In this document: one piece after another, positions 2,025-49,462 of the stretch
Numbering within the stretch: position 1 is the stretch's first letter
How the letters are laid out: each line of letters opens with the position of its first letter
Translations under genes and position numbers: made by a program
Notes under the pieces: generated by a model
Database searches by the model: none
What the model was told of the DNA's origin: nothing
Seen by the model: only the letters and a program-made list of their open reading frames with translations
Assembly (NCBI GenBank): GCA_016462905.1
Contig: JAEMSI010000002.1
Coordinates: forward strand, 41,848-105,847
Reading direction: 5' to 3'
Origin: Polynucleobacter sp.
Lineage (GTDB): Bacteria > Pseudomonadota > Gammaproteobacteria > Burkholderiales > Burkholderiaceae
DNA length: 64,000 nucleotides

Positions 2025-3158
2025 GTGGCGACAGGTAAACGAGATTTTTACGAAATACTTGGTGTGGCGAAAAATGCCAGCGAAGAGGATTTAAAAAAAG
2101 CCTATCGTAAGTTGGCGATGAAGTATCACCCTGATCGTAATCCCGATAACCCTCAGGCCGAGGCTAGTTTTAAAGAAGCTAAAGAAGCTTATGAGACTCT
2201 ATCCGACCCACAAAAACGAGGCGCTTATGATCAGTTTGGTCATGCTGGTGTTGATCCTAGCATGGGCGGGTTTGGAGGCGCTGGCGCAGGAGCAGCGGGT
2301 GGTTTTGCCGATGCTTTTGGGGACATTTTCGGTGATATCTTTGGTCAGGGCGGAAGAGCTGCTGGACCCCAAGTTTATAAAGGCGCCGACCTGCGTTACA
2401 ACATGGAAATTACCCTTGAGCAAGCTGCTGAGGGGTACACCACACAAATTCGGGTGCCCAGTTGGAGTAATTGCAAAGCGTGTAATGGAAGTGGCGCTGA
2501 AGCGGGTAGCAAGGTTGAAAATTGCCCCACCTGTGATGGTCGCGGACAGGTTCGAGTGGCTCAAGGGTTTTTCTCAATGCAACAAACTTGCCCTAAATGT
2601 CGTGGAACTGGCAAATATATTCCCAAGCCATGCAAACAGTGTCATGGCGATGGAAAAATAAAAGAACAAAAAACCTTAGAGATTAAGATTCCAGCCGGTA
2701 TTGACGATGGCATGCGGGTTCGTTCGGTAGGGAATGGAGAGCCTGGGATTAACGGCGGCCCTGCTGGCGACTTATACGTTGAAGTGCGCGTTAAACCACA
2801 CCCTGTTTTCGAAAGAGATGGGGGGGATTTACACGTTCAAATGCCGATATCGATTGCCGCCGCTACTTTGGGCGGAGAGATTGAAGTGCCGACCTTAACT
2901 GGTCGAGTTGCTTTGACTATTCCAGAGGGAACTCAAACTGGAAAAACCTTCCGTTTGCGCAGCAAGGGGATTAAAGGTTTGCGCTCTAGTTTATTGGGCG
3001 ATCTTTATGTCCATGTTTTATTGGAAACACCAGTTAAATTATCGGATCAACAAAAAAATCTCTTAAAAGAGTTTGAAGCTTCTTTACGCGCTGGTGGCGA
3101 TAAACACAGCCCTCAACAAAAGGGATGGCTAGATCGGATGAAAAGTTTTTTTAGTTAA
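2025..3158 (+). CDS. dnaJ: Chaperone DnaJ
   Basis: J-domain with HPD, G/F-rich linker and four CxxCxGxG zinc-finger repeats. GTG start with an AAGGA SD; follows dnaK. Confidence 0.99.
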
Positions 3159-23410: not shown

Positions 23411-26269
23411 TTAAGCAAAAAAACGTGATTCACCCACGCCAAATAAATTACTAATGCAGCGTGGGCACAATTCTGGATGCTGTGAATCTTTTCCAATATT
23501 TAGATTGTGATGCCAGCAACGCACACACTTTAAGTGGGGGCTTGCCCCTACCTCGATATGCAGAGCGTCTTTACCTTCTTTAATTTCTGCTTGCGAGGTG
23601 ATCGTGACAAATTTAAGATCATCTTGAAGTGATTTAAGCAATACAAAGTCTTCAGTTGGTGCAGTAATGATTAACTCTGCTTGCAAAGAAGACCCAATAC
23701 TGCCAGCCTCGCGTTTAATTTCAATCGCCTTGGTGATTTCAGAACGGATCGCACGGAGCCTATCCCATTTAATTAATAAGGAATCGGTTTGATCCATTTG
23801 CGGAAAGGCGGTAAAAGTTTCAGTAAAGATTGAAATTCGATGAGTGGAGTTTGGGTGCGGGAATGCCTCCCATGCTTCTTCAGCGGTAAATGATAAGAAT
23901 GGCGATAAGCACTTTAAAAGATTGCGGGTAATGTGGTAAAGCGCATTTTGTGCCGCTCTTCGATTACTGGCATCGGGCGCCATTGTATAGAGACGGTCTT
24001 TTAAAATATCCAAATAGAAACCGCCCAAGTCTTCAGAGCAAAAACTAAGCAGTTTTGATACTGCTGGGTGAAATTCATATTGCCGATAGTGCGCTTCAAT
24101 TTCAGATTGCAAACGAGCTGCTAAGGCAAGGCTATAGCGATCGATTTCGAGCCAATCTGCAGGTGGCAGGCTGTGTTTTTCAATATCAAAGTCAGCCAAG
24201 TTGGCCAATAGGAAACGTAATGTGTTGCGCATGCGCCGATAACTCTCGACTACGCGTTTTAAAATTTCATCCGAAATGGACATTTCTCCAGAGTAATCGG
24301 TGGATGCAACCCAAAGACGAATAATTTCTGCACCTAATTTATCGCCCACTTGTTGAGGTGCAATCACATTGCCAACCGACTTACTCATTTTTCGACCTTG
24401 CCCATCCACAGTAAATCCATGAGTGAGTAATGCTTTATAGGGTGGTTTGCCATCGAGCATAGAGCCAGTTAGTAAAGAAGAATGAAACCAGCCGCGGTGT
24501 TGATCGGAGCCCTCTAAATACAAATCAGCCCAACGCCCATTGGGTTGAGCGCTTTCTTTGGTTAGCAGTTGATCGCGGTGGGATCCGCGAATTACGTGCC
24601 AATGGGTTGTGCCTGAGTCAAACCAAACATCGAGGGTGTCGCGATTTTTTTCATATTGATCGGCTTCCGCTCCTAATAGGGTTTTTAGATCGAGCGCTTG
24701 CCATGCTTCAATCCCGTTTTGCTCAACTAATTTGGCAATCGCTTCAAGTAGCTCTGGAGTTCGAGCATGCGGCTCACCCGTTTCTTTGTGAATGATGAAT
24801 GCCATCGGTACACCCCATTGGCGCTGTCGCGATAGCGTCCAGTCAGGTCGATTGGCAATCATATTATGTAGGCGTTGTTTTCCCCAGGCGGGATAAAACA
24901 GCGTTGTTTCAATTCCTGCCAATGCAGTTTCACGCAATGATTTCTTACCGTCGTTGGGAATCTTGTCCATGCTAGCAAACCATTGCGACGTAGCCCGATA
25001 AATAATGGGCGTTTTATGTCTCCAACAATGCATATACGAGTGGGTATACGACTTTGATTGCAAGAGGCTACCTGCTTTACGCAATGCCTCAACAATCTCA
25101 GGATTTGCTTTCCATACATGCTGATTCGCAAAGAGAGGTAATGTTGATGCAAACACGCCGTTACCCATGACTGGGTTAATGATGTCTGAATCAACTAGAC
25201 CATGGGCTTTGCACGATTTAAAGTCCTCTTCTCCATATGCTGGGGAGGAATGGACTAAGCCAGTACCCGTATCTAAAGTAACATAGTCAGCAGGATAGAT
25301 TGGGCTTAAACGTCGGTAGCCGACATCTAATTTTGCCAAGGGATGCCAGAATGAAATTCCTTCGAGCGCTTTGCCGAGACAACTTGCAATCACAATGCCT
25401 TCAAGTTGATACTCTTTTAAACAATCAGCGGCGCGGTCTTGAGCCAGAATAAATAATTGGTCCTTTGTTTCAATCAGCCCATAAGTTAATTCAGGGTTGA
25501 CATTGAGCGCTTGATTAGAGGGAAGAGTCCAAGGTGTAGTAGTCCAGATGACCGCCATCCCAGGTTTTTTTGGTAATGCTTTGAGACCAAAGGCGCTTGC
25601 TAGTTTTTCATTTTGGGCTTCGTCAAAAGCAAAACCAACATCGACTGCAGGGTCGGTCTTATCTTGGTATTCAACCTCCGCCTCAGCTAAAGCAGAACCA
25701 CAATCAAAACACCAGTTCACTGGTTTTAGGCCTCGGAATACATAGCCCTTTTTCCAAATTTCACCTAGGGCACGAATTTCATCCGCTTCATTTTGAAAGG
25801 CCATCGTCAGATACGGGTTTTCCCAGTCTCCTAGAACCCCAAGCCGCTCAAAATCTTTTTTCTGTTTAGAAACCTGCTCTTGTGCATATTGCCGGGCCTT
25901 AGTTTGGACTTCTGCGACCGGTAAATTCTTGCCAAATTGTTTTTCAATTTGAATTTCAATCGGCATACCATGGCAATCCCAGCCGGGGACATAAACTGCA
26001 TCAAACCCCATCAACCAGCGTGATTTGATAATCATGTCTTTCAAAATTTTATTGACTGCATGGCCAATATGGATATCGCCATTGGCATAAGGGGGGCCAT
26101 CATGCAAAATAAATTGCGTTTGACCAGCATGCGCATTTCGAATGGCTTGGTAGATTTTCTTTTCTTGCCACTGCTTAACCCATTGGGGTTCGCGTTTAGG
26201 CAAATCGCCCCGCATTGGAAAAGGGGTTTCTAATAAATTAACAGGGTAGGAATTTGTTTTTTCAGACAT
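23411..26269 (-). CDS. ileS: Isoleucine--tRNA ligase (bacterial type 1)
   Basis: [20 protein letters not shown] and a C-terminal Zn finger (CVRC...CPRC). Confidence 0.99.
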
Positions 26270-27212
26270 TATGGGCTTGCTTAAAATAGTGTTGCGCTTG
26301 TAGTGCGTCGTTTTGAATGGCTAACCTCAAGGTATTTAAATCGGAGTATTTTGCTTCATCGCGTAATTTTTTTAATAAGTCCACTTTCACAATGCGACCA
26401 TAGATATTTTCCTTGAAATCGAAAATATGAGCTTCTAGTAAGACTTTCCCAGAGTGATCAACGCTGGGACGGACGCCCAAGCTAGCTACCGCAGGAAGTG
26501 GTTTTGCGGCAATGCCATGAACTTGCGCAACAAAGATACCACTAGTAGCGGGTTTTAAGTTTTCAAAATGATTGGCAACCGCCAAATTAATGGTGGGAAA
26601 TCCCAATTTTCTTCCTAATTGTTGACCATATAAGACGTGTCCTGAAATGGAATAAGTACGCCCCAGCAGTTCTTTAGCATATTCCATATTTCCGTCTTGA
26701 AGTGCTTGGCGCAGGGCAGAGCTTGAAATTCGTTCTTGATTTTCTATCACAGTAGCGATGCTCTCGACCTCAAAACCCCATTTTTTTCCTGCGATTTGTA
26801 GGCTTGAAAAATTGCCCGCCCTTTTTGCGCCATAACAAAAATCATCCCCAATTAATACCCAACGTGCATTTAATTGCTTGAGTAAAATTTCACTGACAAA
26901 TGCTTCTGGATTCAGTTTGGCAAAGGCGGAATTAAAATTTTGTACAAGTACCTGATCGATATTGAGTTTTCCAATTGCTTCTAATTTGTCGCGTAAATTG
27001 AGTATGCGTGGCGGTGCATTGGCTGCGGAGAAGAATTCTTTCGGGTGTGGCTCAAAAGTCATCACGCAACTGGTCAATTGGCGTGCTCTAGCACCCTCTA
27101 CCAATTTACGGAGAAGTGCTTGATGACCGCGATGGACTCCATCAAAATTACCGATGGTAAGAGCGCAAGGGGGTCGAGAAAAATCAGGATTTAGGCTACG
27201 TAATACCTTCAA
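26262..27212 (-). CDS. ribF: Bifunctional riboflavin kinase/FAD synthetase
   Basis: [15 protein letters not shown] and [19 protein letters not shown]. Likely TTG start at 27212; the ORF-track start overlaps purN. Confidence 0.96.
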
Positions 27213-27251
27213 TGGTCGCTTTCTGAATGACCTTGAATTATATTGTTGCTC

Positions 27252-27884
27252 ATGCATTCAATTGTCTCCTTGATTTCTGGAAGAGGTTCCAATCTTCAGG
27301 CCCTCGTCAAAGCCGCCCAGAATGAGGCTTGGCAGGCCCGTTTTGTGGCCGTGATTAGTAACCAACCGGATGCTAAAGGCCTTGATTTTGCTAGACAAAA
27401 TGGCATTCCTGCGATCGTAGTGAACCATCGTGATTTTGCTAGTCGGGAGGCGTTCGATGAGGCTTTAGCCAAGACGATTGATTCGTTTTCGCCGGATTTA
27501 ATTGCGTTAGCTGGTTTTATGAGGGTTCTTACAGACCCTTTCATTGATCGTTATCAAGGCCGAATGATCAATATTCACCCCTCATTACTACCTCATTTTC
27601 CGGGTCTTCATACCCATGAGCGTGCTTTAGAGGCGGGCGTAAAAAAACATGGCGCCAGCGTTCATTTTGTGACCAGGGTGGTTGATGAAGGACCTATTAT
27701 TTGTCAGGGTGAGGTGCCAGTTTTACCAAATGATGATGCCGATACTTTGGCGGCTCGGGTTTTAAAAATGGAACACAGGATTTACCCTTTGGCGGTTAAA
27801 TGGTTTATAAACGGGCGATTACATCAAGAAGGATCACAAGTGCAAATTAGCCCACCCGAATCACAATATATTGTTCAAGCATGA
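27252..27884 (+). CDS. purN: Phosphoribosylglycinamide formyltransferase
   Basis: LISGRGSNL, LAGFMRVL, INIHPSLLP and HFV...DEGP. Confidence 0.98.
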   Translation: MHSIVSLISGRGSNLQALVKAAQNEAWQARFVAVISNQPDAKGLDFARQNGIPAIVVNHRDFASREAFDEALAKTIDSFSPDLIALAGFMRVLTDPFIDRYQGRMINIHPSLLPHFPGLHTHERALEAGVKKHGASVHFVTRVVDEGPIICQGEVPVLPNDDADTLAARVLKMEHRIYPLAVKWFINGRLHQEGSQVQISPPESQYIVQA

Positions 27885-35690: not shown

Positions 35691-35726
35691 AACCATTCCT
35701 TCCAATAAAACATTACGATATGAACC

Positions 35727-36632
35727 ATGAGCTCCGCTAGCCGCTTTACCAAAAAGTCACGCATCCTGATTGTAGGTTGCGGCGATATTGGTATGCGGGT
35801 TGCAAAACATCTCATGCTAAAGCAAGGCAAGGCATTTCAAATCTTCGCCCTTACATCAAAAAAACAACGCTTTGCAGAATTAAGAGCTGCGGGCATGAAA
35901 CCCATTTTGGGGGATTTGGATCAGGTAGACAGTCTTTGGAGAATCGCCTCAATTGCTTCTACCGTGATTCATTTGGCACCCCCTCAAAATTCAGGCAGTC
36001 ATGATCAGCGCACACGAAATCTAATCCAAATTTTATCTCAAGCCCCCCATTCTTTACGGAAGTTAGTCTATATTAGTACCACGGGGGTTTATGGTGATCA
36101 TCAAGGGGGGTGGGTTAATGAGACCACGCCTGTTCAACCCCTTAGCGATCGCGCTAAGAGAAGGGTCGATGCCGAACAAAGCGTGCGATTATTTGGGGCG
36201 ACACAAGGCGTCTCAATCAGTATTTTGCGAGTCCCTGGAATTTATGCGGCAGATCGCTTGCCCTTGGAGCGAATTCGCTCGCAAACTCCTGCAGTTTTAG
36301 CCTCAGAGGATTCGTACTCGAATCATATTCATGCAGATGATTTGGCTCGCTTAGTATGCGCAAGCATGTATTTTGGAAAACCACAAAGAGTCATTAATGC
36401 CTGTGATGGCGGCGACTTAAAAATGGGCGATTATTTTGATTTGGTGGCCGATAATTTCAAACTACAGCGAGTCCCGCGTTTACCAAGAAAAGAAGTGAAA
36501 GAATTAGTCAATCCAATGCTCTGGTCTTTTATGAATGAATCGCGCCGTATATCCAATCAACGCTTAGACGAATTAAAAACCCCCTTACATTATCCTAGCG
36601 TGCTGGATTTTTTAAAAACAATCGAGCGCTAA
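35727..36632 (+). CDS. NAD-dependent epimerase/atypical SDR family protein
   Basis: VGCGDIG Rossmann motif, YISTTGVYGD, LRVPGIY and NHIHADDLA. Confidence 0.88.
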   Translation: MSSASRFTKKSRILIVGCGDIGMRVAKHLMLKQGKAFQIFALTSKKQRFAELRAAGMKPILGDLDQVDSLWRIASIASTVIHLAPPQNSGSHDQRTRNLIQILSQAPHSLRKLVYISTTGVYGDHQGGWVNETTPVQPLSDRAKRRVDAEQSVRLFGATQGVSISILRVPGIYAADRLPLERIRSQTPAVLASEDSYSNHIHADDLARLVCASMYFGKPQRVINACDGGDLKMGDYFDLVADNFKLQRVPRLPRKEVKELVNPMLWSFMNESRRISNQRLDELKTPLHYPSVLDFLKTIER

Positions 36633-43286: not shown

Positions 43287-43532
43287 GTGAGTGAAATGAA
43301 TTCAATATTAGTCAACCGCGAAGTAGATGCCATCGGCATGAACTGCCCTTTGCCGATTTTGCGGACTAAAAAAACCCTAGCCGAGATGCAAAGTGGAGAA
43401 ATTTTAAAAGTGAAAGCAACCGATGCTGGTGCAAGCCATGATTTTCCAGCATTTTGCAAGCAAACTGGCAATGAATTAATTGCCACCGAAACTGAGGGCG
43501 ACACTCTTATTTTTTATCTTAAGCGCCGTTAA
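43287..43532 (+). CDS. tusA: TusA/SirA-family sulfur carrier
   Basis: DAIGMNCPLP (CPxP motif), ATDAGA; 81 aa; AGGAG SD. Confidence 0.88.
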   Translation: MSEMNSILVNREVDAIGMNCPLPILRTKKTLAEMQSGEILKVKATDAGASHDFPAFCKQTGNELIATETEGDTLIFYLKRR

Positions 43533-44652
43533 TATTGAATCGTTTTTGAATCGAGTCGATTACTTGTTGTGGCGTCAGAAGATCTAAGCACTCGCTGCGA
43601 CTATCGGCTTTATCTTCGCAACCTGCTTTACGACAGGGGACGCAATCGCCAGGGCCTTGCAAAATCGTGACATTTTTTACCGTCTGCGAGCGAGCTCTAA
43701 TTTGATAAGGCTCTTTACCAATAAAACCATTCGGCCATGGACCATAGTTGGTGGGTGGGGTTGCCCCGAATAAAGCGATGGTTGGAATTTCGCAAGCGGC
43801 AGCTAAATGTGTTGCTGAGGTATCAACCCCGATATAGAGTTTTGATTTGAGCAGCACGCTAGTTAATTGAGAAAAACTGAGTGAGCCCGCTGCGTTGATA
43901 ACCTGCTGACGAGTCTCCATTTTTAATAATGAAAGAATAGCTTGGTTTAGCTCGATATCTTGTTTTGCTGGAGAGGCGCTCAACAAAATCGTAAAACCCT
44001 GTTTTACAAGCCACTCCATTAATTCTGCCCAGTAGGCCAGTGGCCAACGCTTATAGGCGTTGAGTGGGCCAGGGTGCAAGACAATCAAACTTACCCCCTG
44101 TATTACCTCGTCAATCGATTGAGGAATTTTTTCCGGCACTGGAGGACTAACCCGAATGGGTTGATTAAAAATTTCTTCAGGGTTGGCAAAGAAGGGTTCT
44201 AATAGCCTTAATTTTTCCACAATCACATGTTGAAAAAAATAATCAACGCTAACGGTATAAATACAACATCGTTGCTTCCAAATACTTTTCTTTTGAGCGT
44301 TTTTTGTGTCATCAACAATAACCCCAACCCGTTTTTTGGACGCCAATATACCGTATAGGTAAGAGCGGTCGCTAGGCTGAGTAATTAAAGCGAGGTCATA
44401 GCGCCTAAAGAGCTTTATAAACAACTTTAGATACTCAACCAAACTGGGTCGTTCGGATGTTTCTATCCATGTTTCAATATGAGGATTTCCTTGAATAATG
44501 CTCAGTTTATTTTTATATCCCAAGAAATCAAATTGCGCGTTAGGCCAAAGTTCTTTGGCACGCTCAATTAATGGGGTGGTTATCAAAACGTCACCAATTT
44601 GACGCGTAGCGATGAAAAGGACGCGTTTTGGATTTAATTTATATTCACTCAT
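43519..44652 (-). CDS. GT9 family LPS heptosyltransferase (WaaQ/HepIII-like)
   Basis: RQIGDVLITTP, HPG...KRWP, GVDTSATHLAAA and ALFG..YGPW. Confidence 0.88.
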   Translation of the reverse strand: MSEYKLNPKRVLFIATRQIGDVLITTPLIERAKELWPNAQFDFLGYKNKLSIIQGNPHIETWIETSERPSLVEYLKLFIKLFRRYDLALITQPSDRSYLYGILASKKRVGVIVDDTKNAQKKSIWKQRCCIYTVSVDYFFQHVIVEKLRLLEPFFANPEEIFNQPIRVSPPVPEKIPQSIDEVIQGVSLIVLHPGPLNAYKRWPLAYWAELMEWLVKQGFTILLSASPAKQDIELNQAILSLLKMETRQQVINAAGSLSFSQLTSVLLKSKLYIGVDTSATHLAAACEIPTIALFGATPPTNYGPWPNGFIGKEPYQIRARSQTVKNVTILQGPGDCVPCRKAGCEDKADSRSECLDLLTPQQVIDSIQKRFNINGA

Positions 44653-44658
44653 TATCGG

Positions 44659-45447
44659 TCATTGATTTTTAGCGAGAATTTTTTCTCGCACGCGCCGTGC
44701 ATTTTCCTCGGCCCTAGAGCGATCTTCAATGGAGTGGAAGAGGTGCAATACTTCAGTCGACCATGATCCTGATTTTCGAATCACACCATTCTTTTGTAAA
44801 CGGAAAACAAAATCTGCATCTTCATGACCCCAGCCAATCATGGTTTCATCAAAACCTTGAATTGCCAGCGCATCGGTTTTCCAGCAAGCCATGTTGCAGC
44901 CTTTAATACGACGCCAGACAAATTTTTTATAGTAGCGCCATCCAGCATTTCTTAATTTAATAAAAAGAGGTATGAGTTTATTGATCCCACCTCGACACCT
45001 TTCTACCGGGGCATTTTTTTTAAATTGCCTAAAGTCCCAGTAATTGCTAGTAAGTATTTCATGACTTAATTTTTTATCTAACAAGATGCGGCTTCCGGTA
45101 ACAAGGCAATTTTGTTCTGCTAATAACCGATGTTGTTGAATAAAATCAGGCTGGACAATGCAGTCTCCGTCTAGGAAAATAAGATAATCGCCACCTGCAG
45201 CCTGAATGGCTTGATTCAAGATAATTGTTTTTCGAAAACCTAAATCTTCTTGCCACAAATGAGTTATCTTGACTGGAAAGCTGCGCTCAACTTGATTGAT
45301 TAATCCTTGGGTCGGCGAGCTCGAGCCATCATCAGCAATGACGATCTCAAAATCTAAATCAGTTTGCTGTTGAAGCGATGCCAGGCACTTTGCCAAAGCT
45401 TCAGGCCAATTATAGGTAGCAAGAATTACAGAAATAATAGGCATCAC
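44659..45447 (-). CDS. GT2 family glycosyltransferase (LPS core-associated)
   Basis: ISVILATYN, ADDGS, FLDGD, GCN and GWGHEDAD. Confidence 0.88.
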   Translation of the reverse strand: MMPIISVILATYNWPEALAKCLASLQQQTDLDFEIVIADDGSSSPTQGLINQVERSFPVKITHLWQEDLGFRKTIILNQAIQAAGGDYLIFLDGDCIVQPDFIQQHRLLAEQNCLVTGSRILLDKKLSHEILTSNYWDFRQFKKNAPVERCRGGINKLIPLFIKLRNAGWRYYKKFVWRRIKGCNMACWKTDALAIQGFDETMIGWGHEDADFVFRLQKNGVIRKSGSWSTEVLHLFHSIEDRSRAEENARRVREKILAKNQ

Positions 45448-46202
45448 TTTTTTTCTTTATTGAGCCGCCATAATTTCATATATCGTAAGTATGTTCCTTG
45501 CGCATTCGATTTGGCTAGTAAAAATCCTTGTCGACCATCTAAAAACCCCGCTCTAATAATATAAGTTCTAAAAAATGACCAAGCCCCATGCAATATGGCC
45601 TTAAAGGGGGTTGCAGTTTTGCCTTTTGCATAAGCTTGCTTTGCTGAGTCGGTTGAGTAGCGCTGCATTTTTTCCTCCACTTGCTTTGCATTCATAAAGC
45701 TGTAATGCAGCATCGGATTTTTTAATTTCTTACTTTGGCCTTGAACAATTAAGCGTTCGTGTACCAAGTCATCCGAAAATTGGGCAAAGCCCCTTTTAAA
45801 TAGACGATCTACATAGTCAGGCGTCCAACCAGAATGACGCATAAAGCGCCCTAAAAACCAAGAAAGCCTTGGGATGGCGAAGCATACTTGGGAACCAGGG
45901 TTTGCCAAGACCCATTTAATTTCTTGCCGCAGTTCTGGAGTAAGCCTTTCATCTGCGTCTAGGGAAATAACCCAATCTCCCGTCGCCATCGCTAAAGCCC
46001 GATTTTTTTGGGGCCCAAACCCTGGCCAATCGGGGGGGGAGGCAATTTCAGCAGAATACTGTCTAGCAATTTCTAGGGTGCGGTCGGAGCTCTCGGTATC
46101 CACCACAATAATTTGGCTTGCCAGCCCGTCTAGGGAGGCTAAACAATCGGCTAAATTAGCCTCTTCGTTGCGAGTTATGAGAATGGCTGATAAGGTGGGC
46201 AT
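45444..46202 (-). CDS. GT2 family glycosyltransferase (WaaE/KdtX-like)
   Basis: LSAILITRNE, VDTESSDRT, GFGPQKNRA, SLDADE and VHE; typical msbA neighbour. Confidence 0.88.
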   Translation of the reverse strand: MPTLSAILITRNEEANLADCLASLDGLASQIIVVDTESSDRTLEIARQYSAEIASPPDWPGFGPQKNRALAMATGDWVISLDADERLTPELRQEIKWVLANPGSQVCFAIPRLSWFLGRFMRHSGWTPDYVDRLFKRGFAQFSDDLVHERLIVQGQSKKLKNPMLHYSFMNAKQVEEKMQRYSTDSAKQAYAKGKTATPFKAILHGAWSFFRTYIIRAGFLDGRQGFLLAKSNAQGTYLRYMKLWRLNKEKK

Positions 46203-46212
46203 AATTCATTAT

Positions 46213-47973
46213 ATGAATGCCCAAGACCGTCAATCCCTAAACCGCCTAGTTCGCTATTTACGACCCCATAGTGGCTTGATGATTGGGGCTTTACTTTCCA
46301 TGGTGGTAGTGGCTGGGGCCGAGACTTCGATTCCCGCCTTAATGAAGCCCCTATTAGATAAGGGCTTTACTGGCGAGATGAATGAAAAGCTATGGCTGGT
46401 ACCCGCTTTTCTAGTCGGCCTTGCTTTTGTTCGAAGTATGGCTCAATTTTTATCAAATTATTTATTAAGCAGAGTAATTAATGCAATTTTGCTTAAATTG
46501 CGTGAGCAAATGTTTCATCGACTTTTGCAAACCAGCACTGAATATTTTCAGAAGAACCCAGCATCCAGCTTGATTAATGCGGTTGTTTTTGAGGTTAATA
46601 ATGTATTGACCGTGATGGGCGGAATGTTGATCAGTCTAGTGCGCGATTCATTAACTGTAATCGGTTTAATGGGGTATTTGATTTATTTGAATTGGCGCCT
46701 AACCCTAGTTGTTTTAATTATTTTTCCGATTATTGCGTATGTGATGAGTATCATTAATCGCCGTTTACGGGGCCTTAATCGTGAACAACAAAAATTAACT
46801 AGTGATTTAGCTTATATCGTAGAGGAAGCAGCCGGCGGCCATAAAATCATTAAAGTCCATGGGGGCGAGGATTATGAGATGAAACGCTTTATGGAAAAAG
46901 CAGATCGTCTTCGGCAATTTGCCCTTAAGTCGGCAGTTGCCGGCGGGCTCAATCAGCCGATTACCCAGTTGGTTGCTTCAATGGCTTTGTCGATAGTTTT
47001 AGTCATTGCGATTATGCAATCAGCCAGTCAGGGAGTCACAGTGGGTGGTTTTGCTGCTTTTATTACTGCCATGCTGTTAGTAATTTCGCCATTAAAACAC
47101 CTTGCGGATATTAATCAACCCCTGCAGCGGGGATTAACTGCTGCAGAAATGATTTTCGGTTTGATGGATCAGCCGATTGAGGAAGATGAATTCCAAAAAT
47201 CCGGAATGAAACGAATTGAAAAAGCACAAGGCGCCATTCAATTTGATCACGTGTCATTTTCTTACGATCAAGAGCAGGGTCGCAAAGATGCTCTGATTGA
47301 TATTAATTTTATTATTCAACCCGGAGAGGTCATTGCTCTGGTTGGGCCCTCTGGCGGAGGGAAGTCAACTTTAGTTAATTTGTTGCCGCGTTTTTTCAAA
47401 CCAAAGTCGGGCCAAATTCGCTTAGATGGCATTCCTATAGATGAACTAGCACTCCGCGATTTACGTCGGCAAATCGCTTTTGTTAGCCAAGATGTTATTT
47501 TATTTAACGATACGATTGCCGCAAATGTTGCCTACGGTTCAAGCTTGTCTGATATTAAGCGTGAATACGTTATCAAAGCTCTCGAGGCCGCTAACTTAAG
47601 TTCGCTAATTCAGGATTTGCCAGAAGGTATCGATACCGTGATTGGGGATAATGGAAATCGTCTTTCAGGTGGTCAGAGACAGCGTTTAGCAATTGCTAGA
47701 GCGGTTTATAAAAATGCGCCCATATTGATATTGGATGAAGCTACTTCAGCCTTAGATTCGGAATCAGAGCGTCAGGTACAAGATGCCTTGGAGCGGCTAA
47801 TGATCGGCAGAACTACTTTAGTTATTGCCCATCGCTTATCAACCATTGAACATGCTAACCGTATCGCAGTATTAGATCAGGGCAGAATGGTTGAATTTGG
47901 AAGCCATCAAGATCTAATTACAAAAGACGGTGTTTATGCCAACCTGTATAAGTTACAGTTTGCAAATACTTAG
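46213..47973 (+). CDS. msbA: Lipid A-core flippase MsbA
   Basis: Six-TM ABC transporter domain plus GPSGGGKS, LSGGQRQR and LDEATSALD. ATG at 46213; the ORF-track extension is antisense to the GT2 gene. Confidence 0.95.
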   Translation: MNAQDRQSLNRLVRYLRPHSGLMIGALLSMVVVAGAETSIPALMKPLLDKGFTGEMNEKLWLVPAFLVGLAFVRSMAQFLSNYLLSRVINAILLKLREQMFHRLLQTSTEYFQKNPASSLINAVVFEVNNVLTVMGGMLISLVRDSLTVIGLMGYLIYLNWRLTLVVLIIFPIIAYVMSIINRRLRGLNREQQKLTSDLAYIVEEAAGGHKIIKVHGGEDYEMKRFMEKADRLRQFALKSAVAGGLNQPITQLVASMALSIVLVIAIMQSASQGVTVGGFAAFITAMLLVISPLKHLADINQPLQRGLTAAEMIFGLMDQPIEEDEFQKSGMKRIEKAQGAIQFDHVSFSYDQEQGRKDALIDINFIIQPGEVIALVGPSGGGKSTLVNLLPRFFKPKSGQIRLDGIPIDELALRDLRRQIAFVSQDVILFNDTIAANVAYGSSLSDIKREYVIKALEAANLSSLIQDLPEGIDTVIGDNGNRLSGGQRQRLAIARAVYKNAPILILDEATSALDSESERQVQDALERLMIGRTTLVIAHRLSTIEHANRIAVLDQGRMVEFGSHQDLITKDGVYANLYKLQFANT

Positions 47974-47986
47974 GTTTCATAAATTT

Positions 47987-49462
47987 TTAATTTAAAACAA
48001 TGTCGTACTGTTCTTGCTGAAAACTCGTTTCAGCTTGCAGTCGTATGGGTTTTCCAATAAAGTCACCGAGCATCGTGAGAAATTGATTTTCTTCCTCAAG
48101 AAATAAGTCAATGATGTCAGGCGATGCAACAATACGAAATTCTTTGGGGTTGAACTGACGATGCTCGCGCATGATTTCTCTTAGTATTTCATAGCAAACC
48201 GTTTGCGCTGTTTTAAGTTCGCCTTTGCCAGAACAGATGGGGCAGGGTTGACAAAGAATATGTGCCAAGGATTCGCGGGTGCGTTTTCGCGTCATTTCAA
48301 TTAAGCCTAGACTAGAAAAATCACTCACACCTGTTCTAGCGTGGTCGCGCTGTAAATTTTTTTTCAGTTCGTTTAAAACTGCAACTTGATGATCTATATT
48401 TAACATATCAATAAAATCAATCACAATAATTCCGCCCAGATTGCGTAACCGTAGTTGTCGTGCAATCGAGTGCGCCGCTTCCAGATTCGTTTTAAAGACA
48501 GTGTCATCTAAATTTCTAGCGCCAATAAAGCTGCCCGTATTGACATCAATGGTTGTCATCGATTCGGTTTGATCGATGATTAAATACCCTCCTGACTTTA
48601 GATCAACTCGGCGACCTAAAGCTTTGTTGATTTCAGATTCGATATCAAAGAGATCGAATAGAGCACGTTCACCTCGATAAAGGACCAGCTTATCAAGTAA
48701 GTTTGGCGTATAAGTACGAGAAAATAGTTTTAACTTTTCAAAATTCTCGGACGAATCAATTCGGATTTGCGACGTGGATTCGCTAGTAAGATCACGCAGA
48801 ACCCTTTCAGCTAAACTGAGATCTTGATACACAAGCGCTGGTGCGGGCTTTTCGGTAATCGCCTTTTCAATCGTATGCCAACTAGTTTGCAGGTATTGCA
48901 GGTCATGCTGAATCTCTTCATCTGAAGCATCTTCGGCGCTGGTTCGAACAATCAGCCCCCCTACAAAGGCAGGGCTAATTAAACTGAAGAGTCTATTTTT
49001 TAATTTTTCTCGATCTTCAGGCGCGGTAATTTTTTGAGAGATACCGATGGGAGATTTGCCATCCTCCCCATTTCTTTCTTTGGGTAGGTAGACTAAATTT
49101 CGTCCAGCAATACTAACTTGACCACTGAGACGAGCTCCTTTACTTCCCAAGGGATCCTTAAGAACCTGAACCAAGATAGTTTGCCCTTGGAATAAATGCT
49201 TTTCAATTTGCGTATTGTTTTGGTTACCTGTTTCAGAAATAGCTAGATCGTTAAAGTGAATAAACGCTGCACGTTCTGCACCAATATCAACAAAAGCCGA
49301 TTGCATCCCTGGTAAAACTCGTAAGACTTTTGCTAGGTATATATTTCCCACTATGCCGCGTTGACGGGTTCGTTCAATATGCAGTTCTTGGACTGCATTT
49401 TGCTGAATAAGCGCCACCCGGGTTTCTTGCGGGGTGATATTAATTAAAATTTCTTCACTCAT
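47987..49462 (-). CDS. rng: Ribonuclease G
   Basis: S1 domain (GNIYLAKV), IDVNTGSF, NLGGIIVIDFID and EMTRKR; about 490 aa with no RNase E C-terminal scaffold; follows maf. Confidence 0.96.
   Translation of the reverse strand: MSEEILINITPQETRVALIQQNAVQELHIERTRQRGIVGNIYLAKVLRVLPGMQSAFVDIGAERAAFIHFNDLAISETGNQNNTQIEKHLFQGQTILVQVLKDPLGSKGARLSGQVSIAGRNLVYLPKERNGEDGKSPIGISQKITAPEDREKLKNRLFSLISPAFVGGLIVRTSAEDASDEEIQHDLQYLQTSWHTIEKAITEKPAPALVYQDLSLAERVLRDLTSESTSQIRIDSSENFEKLKLFSRTYTPNLLDKLVLYRGERALFDLFDIESEINKALGRRVDLKSGGYLIIDQTESMTTIDVNTGSFIGARNLDDTVFKTNLEAAHSIARQLRLRNLGGIIVIDFIDMLNIDHQVAVLNELKKNLQRDHARTGVSDFSSLGLIEMTRKRTRESLAHILCQPCPICSGKGELKTAQTVCYEILREIMREHRQFNPKEFRIVASPDIIDLFLEEENQFLTMLGDFIGKPIRLQAETSFQQEQYDIVLN

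Follow-up and report, generated by a model that had tools for sequence, protein, structure and literature searches.

The 64,000-nt window analysed here, one contiguous stretch of a Polynucleobacter genome, harbours two divergent envelope genes whose start codons are separated by only 10 bp. The plus strand carries msbA (46213..47973; TIGR02203), encoding a 586-residue ABC transporter that serves as lipid A flippase, and the minus strand carries a gene for a 252-residue glycosyltransferase of the GT2 family (45444..46202; PF00535), the first of three genes in a putative lipopolysaccharide (LPS) core operon. MsbA matches TIGR02203 over residues 10-584 with 759.1 bits, above the curated cut-off of 602, and its gene appears to be monocistronic, with the RNase G gene (rng) lying convergent to it, 13 bp past the msbA stop codon. 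This gap between the two gene ends (47973-47987) has no space for separate intrinsic terminators, so the msbA and rng transcripts probably overlap at their 3' ends. The GT2 protein belongs to PF00535 and otherwise finds generic GT2 matches, all of them below every equivalog cut-off, with sources naming it 'glycosyltransferase family 2' or 'LPS biosynthesis protein'. Its presumed role in the LPS core is taken from its company in the operon, namely a second GT2 glycosyltransferase gene (minus strand, 44659-45447), which overlaps the first by 4 nt, and a gene resembling heptosyltransferase III/RfaQ (minus strand, 43519-44652).

Both start codons, as chosen in a first-pass annotation of this DNA, are secure, being upheld by the TIGR02203 match, by stop codons, by the loss of upstream ATGs in relatives and by independent gene calls. 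Direct reading of the sequence places an in-frame TGA two codons before the GT2 ATG, so that this open reading frame (ORF) cannot start further upstream, and in relatives that lack the GT2 genes (group 2, described below) the frame of msbA is closed by a TGA 9 codons before the same ATG. In-frame ATGs at 46177 and 46183 are missing from several relatives; these two and the GTG at 46195 were rejected as msbA starts, being either unconserved or blocked by a stop in group 2, and a longer msbA ORF from 45874 was dismissed as an artefact that reads through GT2 in antisense. In metagenome contigs with gene calls of their own the msbA and GT2 starts are likewise 10 bp apart, and the start codon is ATG for both genes in every locus. 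For annotators this is a caution that very short gaps between divergent genes of Polynucleobacter are real and not the sign of mis-called starts.

The plus-strand letters from 46200 to 46219 read CATAATTCATTATATGAATG, with the 10-bp spacer AATTCATTAT (46203..46212) separating the GT2 ATG (minus strand, 46202) from the msbA ATG (plus strand, 46213-15). On the plus strand, the -10-like hexamer CATAAT (46200..46205) is followed by 7 nt and the msbA ATG, and its CAT (46200-02) is the complement of the GT2 start codon. On the minus strand, the consensus -10 hexamer TATAAT (46208..46213, read from 46213 to 46208) is followed by 5 nt (GAATT) and the GT2 ATG, its first base being opposite the A of the msbA start codon. 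The hexamers themselves occupy separate positions and make up the two arms of an inverted repeat (46201-12, ATAAT-TC-ATTAT). The 10-bp gap and the overlap of each hexamer with the start codon of the partner gene, both described in the first-pass annotation, are thus borne out by direct reading of the sequence. Counted over both strands (128 kb), TATAAT occurs 5 times and CATAAT 32 times. A weak -35-like hexamer, ATGAGA (46177..46182, plus strand), precedes CATAAT with a 17-bp spacer, the pair giving 9/12 matches; it lies within the GT2 coding sequence and its conservation is inseparable from coding constraint on GT2. Also within the GT2 coding sequence, ~50-65 nt 5' of the msbA ATG, is a perfect palindrome, GGCTAAATTAGCC (46149-46161), which was flagged as terminator-like on both strands and near whose equivalent site in relatives the depth of contigs from RNA runs (see below) peaks.

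The arrangement is widely conserved among relatives. A scan admitting one genome per species returned 80 Polynucleobacter-type loci, 60 of which, together with the window, form a group of 61 distinct sequences with the CAT-10 bp-ATG arrangement (group 1), and the GT2 proteins of this group are 65-78% identical to that of the window. Across the 61 sequences a nearly invariant 29-bp block (46189..46217, or -24 to +4 when counted from the A of the msbA start codon) has no column with a pairwise identity below 0.9; it covers three synonymous sites in GT2 codons 2-4. Third codon positions in the flanking 150 bp have mean pairwise identities of 0.55 (msbA) and 0.60 (GT2), with 6 of 94 being invariant. 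Within the spacer (46203-12), whose alignment across relatives the first-pass annotation had proposed, both length and hexamers are kept throughout group 1: 9 of 10 columns are invariant, the sole variant is a C to G change at 46207 in two loci (L006 and L018), in the 2 nt between the hexamers, and the inverted repeat is invariant in 59 of the 61 genomes. Neither a second block of excess conservation nor a conserved promoter-like site was found in the 150 bp on either side of the block. The alignment shows that 46189-46217 is under strong purifying selection. In one group-1 locus (L025, ~1971) a synonymous change in GT2 codon 2 (CCC to CCA, at -16 from the msbA ATG) turns GGG-CATAAT into TGG-CATAAT, the extended -10 element (TGn) that is found in the genomes without GT2.

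The most telling evidence comes from three other arrangements in the relatives. Both GT2 genes are absent from six loci (group 2), in which the heptosyltransferase gene begins 68-81 bp away, and these loci keep GATTGGCATAATTCATTATATGAA, comprising an extended -10 element (TGn-CATAAT), 7 nt and the msbA ATG. Two further loci (L068 and L069) have unrelated sequence at this place, yet show TGaGATAAT, 7 nt and the msbA ATG. In eleven loci (group 3) GT2 is 58-60% identical to that of the window and the spacer measures 38-39 bp, with TACGAT and 7 nt before the msbA ATG and TGcTAACAT and 6 nt before the GT2 ATG. Taken together, a hexamer whose second base is A and whose sixth is T stands exactly 7 nt before the msbA ATG at all 80 loci; it is CATAAT at 67 of them and GATAAT or TACGAT, with the same gap, at the remaining 13, such that the spacing is maintained in three contexts (CATAAT, TGaGATAAT and TACGAT) that cannot be aligned with one another. 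On the opposite side, a -10-like hexamer lies 5 or 6 nt before the GT2 ATG at 72 of 72 loci with a divergent GT2 gene, and is TATAAT at 5 nt in 61 of 61 loci of the 10-bp arrangement. The background of hexamers with A2 and T6 is 2% per position at a minimum of 4/6 matches and 0.28% at 5/6 matches. A homologue search with GT2 returned close relatives only and is uninformative on the arrangement beyond the genus. The GT2-less loci L060, L062, L063, L064, L066 and L070 (~2940-3005) retain a 20-bp core that includes the former GT2 ATG, and this ATG opens a short ORF (MPIF[C/F/Y][H/N/C]KH..., 15-23 codons) before the heptosyltransferase gene, which may be a relic or a leaderless upstream ORF, or may simply reflect a conserved -35/spacer region of the msbA promoter.

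A box close to the start codon also recurs elsewhere in the window. Hexamers with at least 5/6 matches to TATAAT were found 7 times at gaps of 5-8 nt before the 55 predicted starts, compared to 8 times altogether at the other 41 gap positions scanned. The best of the further cases are glnS (minus strand, 38425), where TACAAT and 6 nt precede the ATG directly after a terminator hairpin, and alaS (plus strand, 40598), where TGcGATAAT and 7 nt precede it. Two close metagenomic relatives (L084 and L085) have TACAAT at 6 nt in glnS and [G/C]ATAAT at 7 nt in alaS, and the bases in between differ. No such box was seen at the start of ~70 other betaproteobacterial alaS loci, several of which instead have TAAAAT-type boxes 25-45 nt upstream. 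Since the glnS and alaS boxes are recurrent and conserved and the other alaS loci are devoid of them, the layout appears to be lineage-specific, which suggests that these housekeeping genes may undergo leaderless expression in this lineage.

Ribosome-binding signals are sparse in the window. Of the 55 predicted starts, no more than about a dozen have a convincing Shine-Dalgarno (SD) sequence (3-12 nt from the start, -5.5 kcal/mol or stronger), and initiation without an SD seems to be the rule in this genome. Burkholderiales are often placed in the weak-signal group X of GeneMarkS-2 (PMC6028130), and the few SD sequences in the window fit this placement. GT2 has no SD, the best pairing reaching -3.0 kcal/mol at a distance of 21 nt. 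Upstream of msbA there is an SD-like stretch, AAGGTGGG (46192..46199, plus strand), 13-14 nt before the ATG and within GT2 codons 2-4, whose pairing (UAAGGUGGG) is predicted at -7.2 kcal/mol with a spacing of 13; its AAGGTGG is conserved in group 1 at the synonymous sites of these codons, and a spacing of 13-14 nt lies at the outer edge of the usable range. In group 2 the stretch is replaced by AAGATTGG, and both an SD-like motif and a -10-like hexamer at -34 to -29 are missing upstream of msbA. No structure is predicted for the first 45 nt of the msbA mRNA (0.0 kcal/mol; shuffles -4.3 +/- 2.3), and in the GT2 mRNA the first 14 nt are predicted to be unpaired.

These features are best accommodated, with a probability of roughly 0.55, by a bidirectional sigma-70 promoter of the known class with short spacing, from which two mRNAs, leaderless or nearly so, would be transcribed, their predicted start sites lying 11 bp apart. 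The two -10 elements would stand side by side on opposite strands, CATAAT serving msbA and TATAAT serving the operon of GT2, second GT2 and heptosyltransferase genes. Depending on the orientation in which RNA polymerase binds, transcription would begin either at or no more than 2 nt from the first base of the msbA ATG (46213, possibly 46211) or at the first base of the GT2 ATG (46202). Both messages would then be translated from a 5'-terminal or nearly terminal AUG in an SD-independent manner. Each -10 element would cover the start site of the other and both open complexes would melt the same ~14 bp (46200-46215), so that a single orientation could be occupied at a time. The start sites, the leaderless mode of translation and the regulatory effect of shared melting are what we infer from the letters and their conservation. 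The first-pass proposal that two leaderless transcripts fire from one interlocked promoter is partly supported: it is favoured by the hexamer-to-ATG spacing that is kept in every arrangement, by the place of the sole spacer variant between the hexamers, by group 2 and by the alaS and glnS boxes, and it is held back by start sites that are predicted from sequence, by ambiguous RNA contigs, by the scarcity of SD sequences in the window and by the SD-like AAGGTGG. Its further argument, that neither gene has room for an SD or a 5' untranslated region (5'UTR), fails because a leader could sit within the coding sequence of the partner gene.

RNA evidence for the locus comes from assembled, unstranded Logan contigs of lake metatranscriptomes, which break at branches of the assembly graph. 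Across the GT2 start codon, at an identity of at least 96%, contig depth falls from 318 to 46 to 23 in run X7 and from 99 to 0 in run X9, which suggests that most of the RNA on the GT2 side ends near the GT2 ATG, and in group 3 a contig of run X13 ends 20 nt inside GT2. Three runs labelled 'RNA-Seq' (X8, X10 and X25) behave like DNA and served as a control only; in X8 depth peaks over the invariant block (1171 versus 191 and 259 in the flanks), as is expected where all strains collapse in assembly. Contig ends at the borders of the block (L009, 2975/2977 and 3005) were likewise rejected as start sites and attributed to branch points in the graph, since the sequences of different strains merge at just these edges of the invariant block. 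An X9 contig that runs into Illumina adapter sequence after ~2976-79 may represent the trimmed 5' end of a GT2 mRNA or a PCR duplicate and was not used. The search of sequencing runs and literature yielded no paper that joins Polynucleobacter with leaderless transcripts or start-site mapping, and the supplements of the start-site papers on Burkholderia cenocepacia and Cupriavidus metallidurans contain no entry named 'msbA'.

Several observations weigh against leaderless initiation from a shared promoter. Low-depth contigs of group 1 span the spacer (X9, 2943-3060 at depth 10; X7, 2977-3029; X6, 2977-3017), as do a single insert of X18 (2883-3022) and a 354-nt contig of X19 across the 39-bp spacer of group 3; such contigs may stem from DNA carry-over, antisense RNA, read-through RNA or genuine leadered transcripts. 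As most genes in the window do without an SD, the absence of one is weak evidence for a leaderless message, and conservation of AAGGTGG at synonymous sites points the other way. The -35 hexamer on the plus strand is weak, and the promoter scan found neither a recognisable -35 element nor a TG extension for the minus strand, where moreover the gap of 5 nt is shorter than the usual 6-7 nt, so that initiation at the G of the GT2 ATG is conceivable. Finally, no run with start-site resolution, be it differential RNA-seq (dRNA-seq), Cappable-seq or raw stranded reads, was found for the lineage among the sequencing runs searched.

A possible but less favoured explanation is that both genes, or just msbA, owe most of their transcription to conventional promoters within the coding sequence of the partner, with 5' leaders that overlap in antisense. 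On this view the invariant block would represent the 5'UTR and translation-initiation region of both mRNAs simultaneously, with AAGGTGG and the AU-rich stretch serving msbA and the AU-rich, SD-independent stretch serving GT2. Transcription of msbA would start near -23, past GAGAAT/GAGTAT (-34 to -29), and give a leader of ~21-24 nt. Leaders of this length are typical of Burkholderiaceae: 5'UTRs of 21-30 nt are the most frequent in B. cenocepacia, and in C. metallidurans the peak is at 26 nt (PMC4603805; PMC7563307). Such a start site agrees with the left border of the block (-24), and the contigs spanning the spacer, the conservation of AAGGTGG in GT2 codons 2-4 and the apparent prevalence of SD-independent initiation in the window are all compatible with leaders. 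However, the SD spacing of 13-14 nt is poor, a generic AU-rich leader does not need base-by-base invariance, and no second conserved block or promoter-like element exists within 150 bp on either side. Moreover, group 2 keeps the core and the 7-nt spacing despite having neither the SD-like motif nor the hexamer at -34 to -29, the hexamer spacing persists across three unrelated contexts, and RNA depth collapses near the GT2 ATG, all of which is hard to reconcile with leadered transcripts.

It is improbable that ATAAT-TC-ATTAT functions mainly as the operator of a dimeric transcription factor co-regulating msbA and the core operon, its likeness to -10 elements being secondary. The palindromic layout would suit such a factor, invariance does reach beyond the hexamers (46189 to 46199), and an inverted repeat in the middle of overlapping divergent promoters is a typical operator, as in lysG-lysE (PMC5648196). 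Yet the arms comprise just 5 bp, consist of A/T only and coincide exactly with the hexamers, no second copy of the motif was found in the 64-kb window when mismatches were allowed, no regulator gene lies in the neighbourhood, and group 3 and L068/L069 have their hexamers at the same distances without a palindrome; besides, an operator would be compatible with the bidirectional promoter and not exclusive of it. Least of all do we credit chance, that is, an AT-rich 10-bp gap with -10-like words that is conserved through close kinship alone. Such words are indeed frequent in AT-rich DNA, hexamers with A2, T6 and at least 4/6 matches occupying 2% of positions. Chance is nonetheless effectively refuted by the conservation of the block, with an invariant spacer next to third codon positions at 0.55-0.60, and by the spacing kept in unalignable contexts; the rarity of TATAAT (5 in 128 kb) also speaks against it.

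Coupling or mutual exclusion of lipid A flipping and core glycosylation through polymerase occupancy, also raised in the first-pass annotation, is physically plausible for a bidirectional promoter of this kind. It is possible but not implied, because interference at E. coli bidirectional promoters was seen only when one direction was strongly activated (PMC12825309). We consider it unlikely, if worth stating, that the ~14-bp melted region acts as a factor-free toggle, in which each binding of polymerase commits to either the flippase or the core-glycosyltransferase mRNA and the relative strength of the two hexamers hard-wires both the ratio of flipping to glycosylation and its cell-to-cell noise. 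Were this true, triple-duty coding, with hexamers that carry the start codon of the partner, would explain the base-by-base invariance across the genus, and the toggle would fit a wider shift of streamlined Polynucleobacter genomes to leaderless essential genes (msbA, alaS and glnS). If the bidirectional leaderless promoter itself is confirmed, two essential envelope functions would be driven from ~16 bp, each of which is part of a -10 element, a start site or a start codon on either strand, making the locus a notably clean case in nature of maximal promoter compaction. It would also offer a genus-wide natural test case for polymerase competition at bidirectional promoters and an instance of essential, non-regulatory genes being leaderless in a proteobacterium with a streamlined genome.

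Other tight divergent pairs occur in the window. A ferredoxin-reductase-like gene and an unassigned 301-residue ORF start at 35696/35705 (minus strand) and 35727 (plus strand), with a spacer of 21-30 bp depending on the choice of the minus start, and the plus-strand gene at 35727 is preceded by TACGAT and 7 nt. The divergent longest ORFs at 26262-27257 (minus strand) and 27243-27884 (plus strand) overlap by 15 nt (27243-27257); their true starts are uncertain, and an ATG at 27252 follows TATATT/TATTGT.

Bidirectional promoters are known in which symmetrical -10 elements give divergent start sites 7-25 bp apart, with 18 bp as the commonest spacing and 10, 12 and 23 bp also preferred (10.1101/2020.01.31.928960; PMC12825309). 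The promoters described by Warman, Forrest, Wade and Grainger, among them E. coli acrA/acrR, soxS/soxR and bioA/bioB, resemble the msbA-GT2 locus in having near-symmetrical -10 elements on opposite strands at a short spacing, here a predicted 11 bp with pseudo-symmetry (ATAAT-TC-ATTAT), in lying between divergent, functionally linked genes, and in orientations that are mutually exclusive. In their 18-bp class the -10 elements overlap, whereas here they would stand side by side, each over the start site of the other. The E. coli examples have 5' leaders, unlike the arrangement here, in which both start codons lie inside the promoter and overlap the -10 element of the partner, and their start sites are mapped, whereas ours are predicted from sequence. 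Basal activity of five E. coli bidirectional promoters was too low for competition (PMC12825309).

With respect to leaderless mRNAs, the locus shares with the documented classes a -10 box 5-7 nt before the ATG (5 nt in GT2, 7 nt in msbA), an invariable ATG, a 5' end predicted to be unstructured, and recurrence of the signature at other first-in-operon genes of the window. GT2 further shares the lack of a usable SD, and msbA would do so if its AAGGTGG is too distant to function. The classes compared are leaderless genes whose start codon follows a Pribnow box at 6-8 nt (GeneMarkS-2 group C, PMC6028130; Zheng et al. 2011, PMC3160421) and the sets from Mycobacterium (PMC3898074, PMC4633059), Deinococcus deserti (PMC4007540), B. 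cenocepacia (PMC4603805) and C. metallidurans (PMC7563307). Within Burkholderiaceae itself, documented leaderless mRNAs are immediately preceded by a TA-rich box (PMC4603805; PMC7563307): in B. cenocepacia 72 primary start sites coincide exactly with a start codon and a further 42 fall within 10 nt of one, tRNAs accounting for 24 of these 114 (PMC4603805), and 4.67% of the primary start sites of C. metallidurans are leaderless (PMC7563307). The leaderless genes of these Burkholderiaceae are a small minority enriched in regulators, whereas the candidates here have essential envelope and housekeeping functions (msbA, the LPS-core transferases, alaS and glnS), and two of them are interlocked head to head. 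A further likeness is to the divergent lysG-lysE pair of Mycobacterium tuberculosis, with its overlapping -10/-35 elements, central inverted repeat and one leaderless transcript (P2-lysE), but that region extends over 108 bp and is run by its own LysR-type regulator (PMC5648196), whereas the msbA-GT2 spacer has 10 bp and no regulator gene nearby. Thus, bidirectional promoters and leaderless genes are both already known, and their predicted combination at msbA-GT2 would be a compact one and not a new kind of system.

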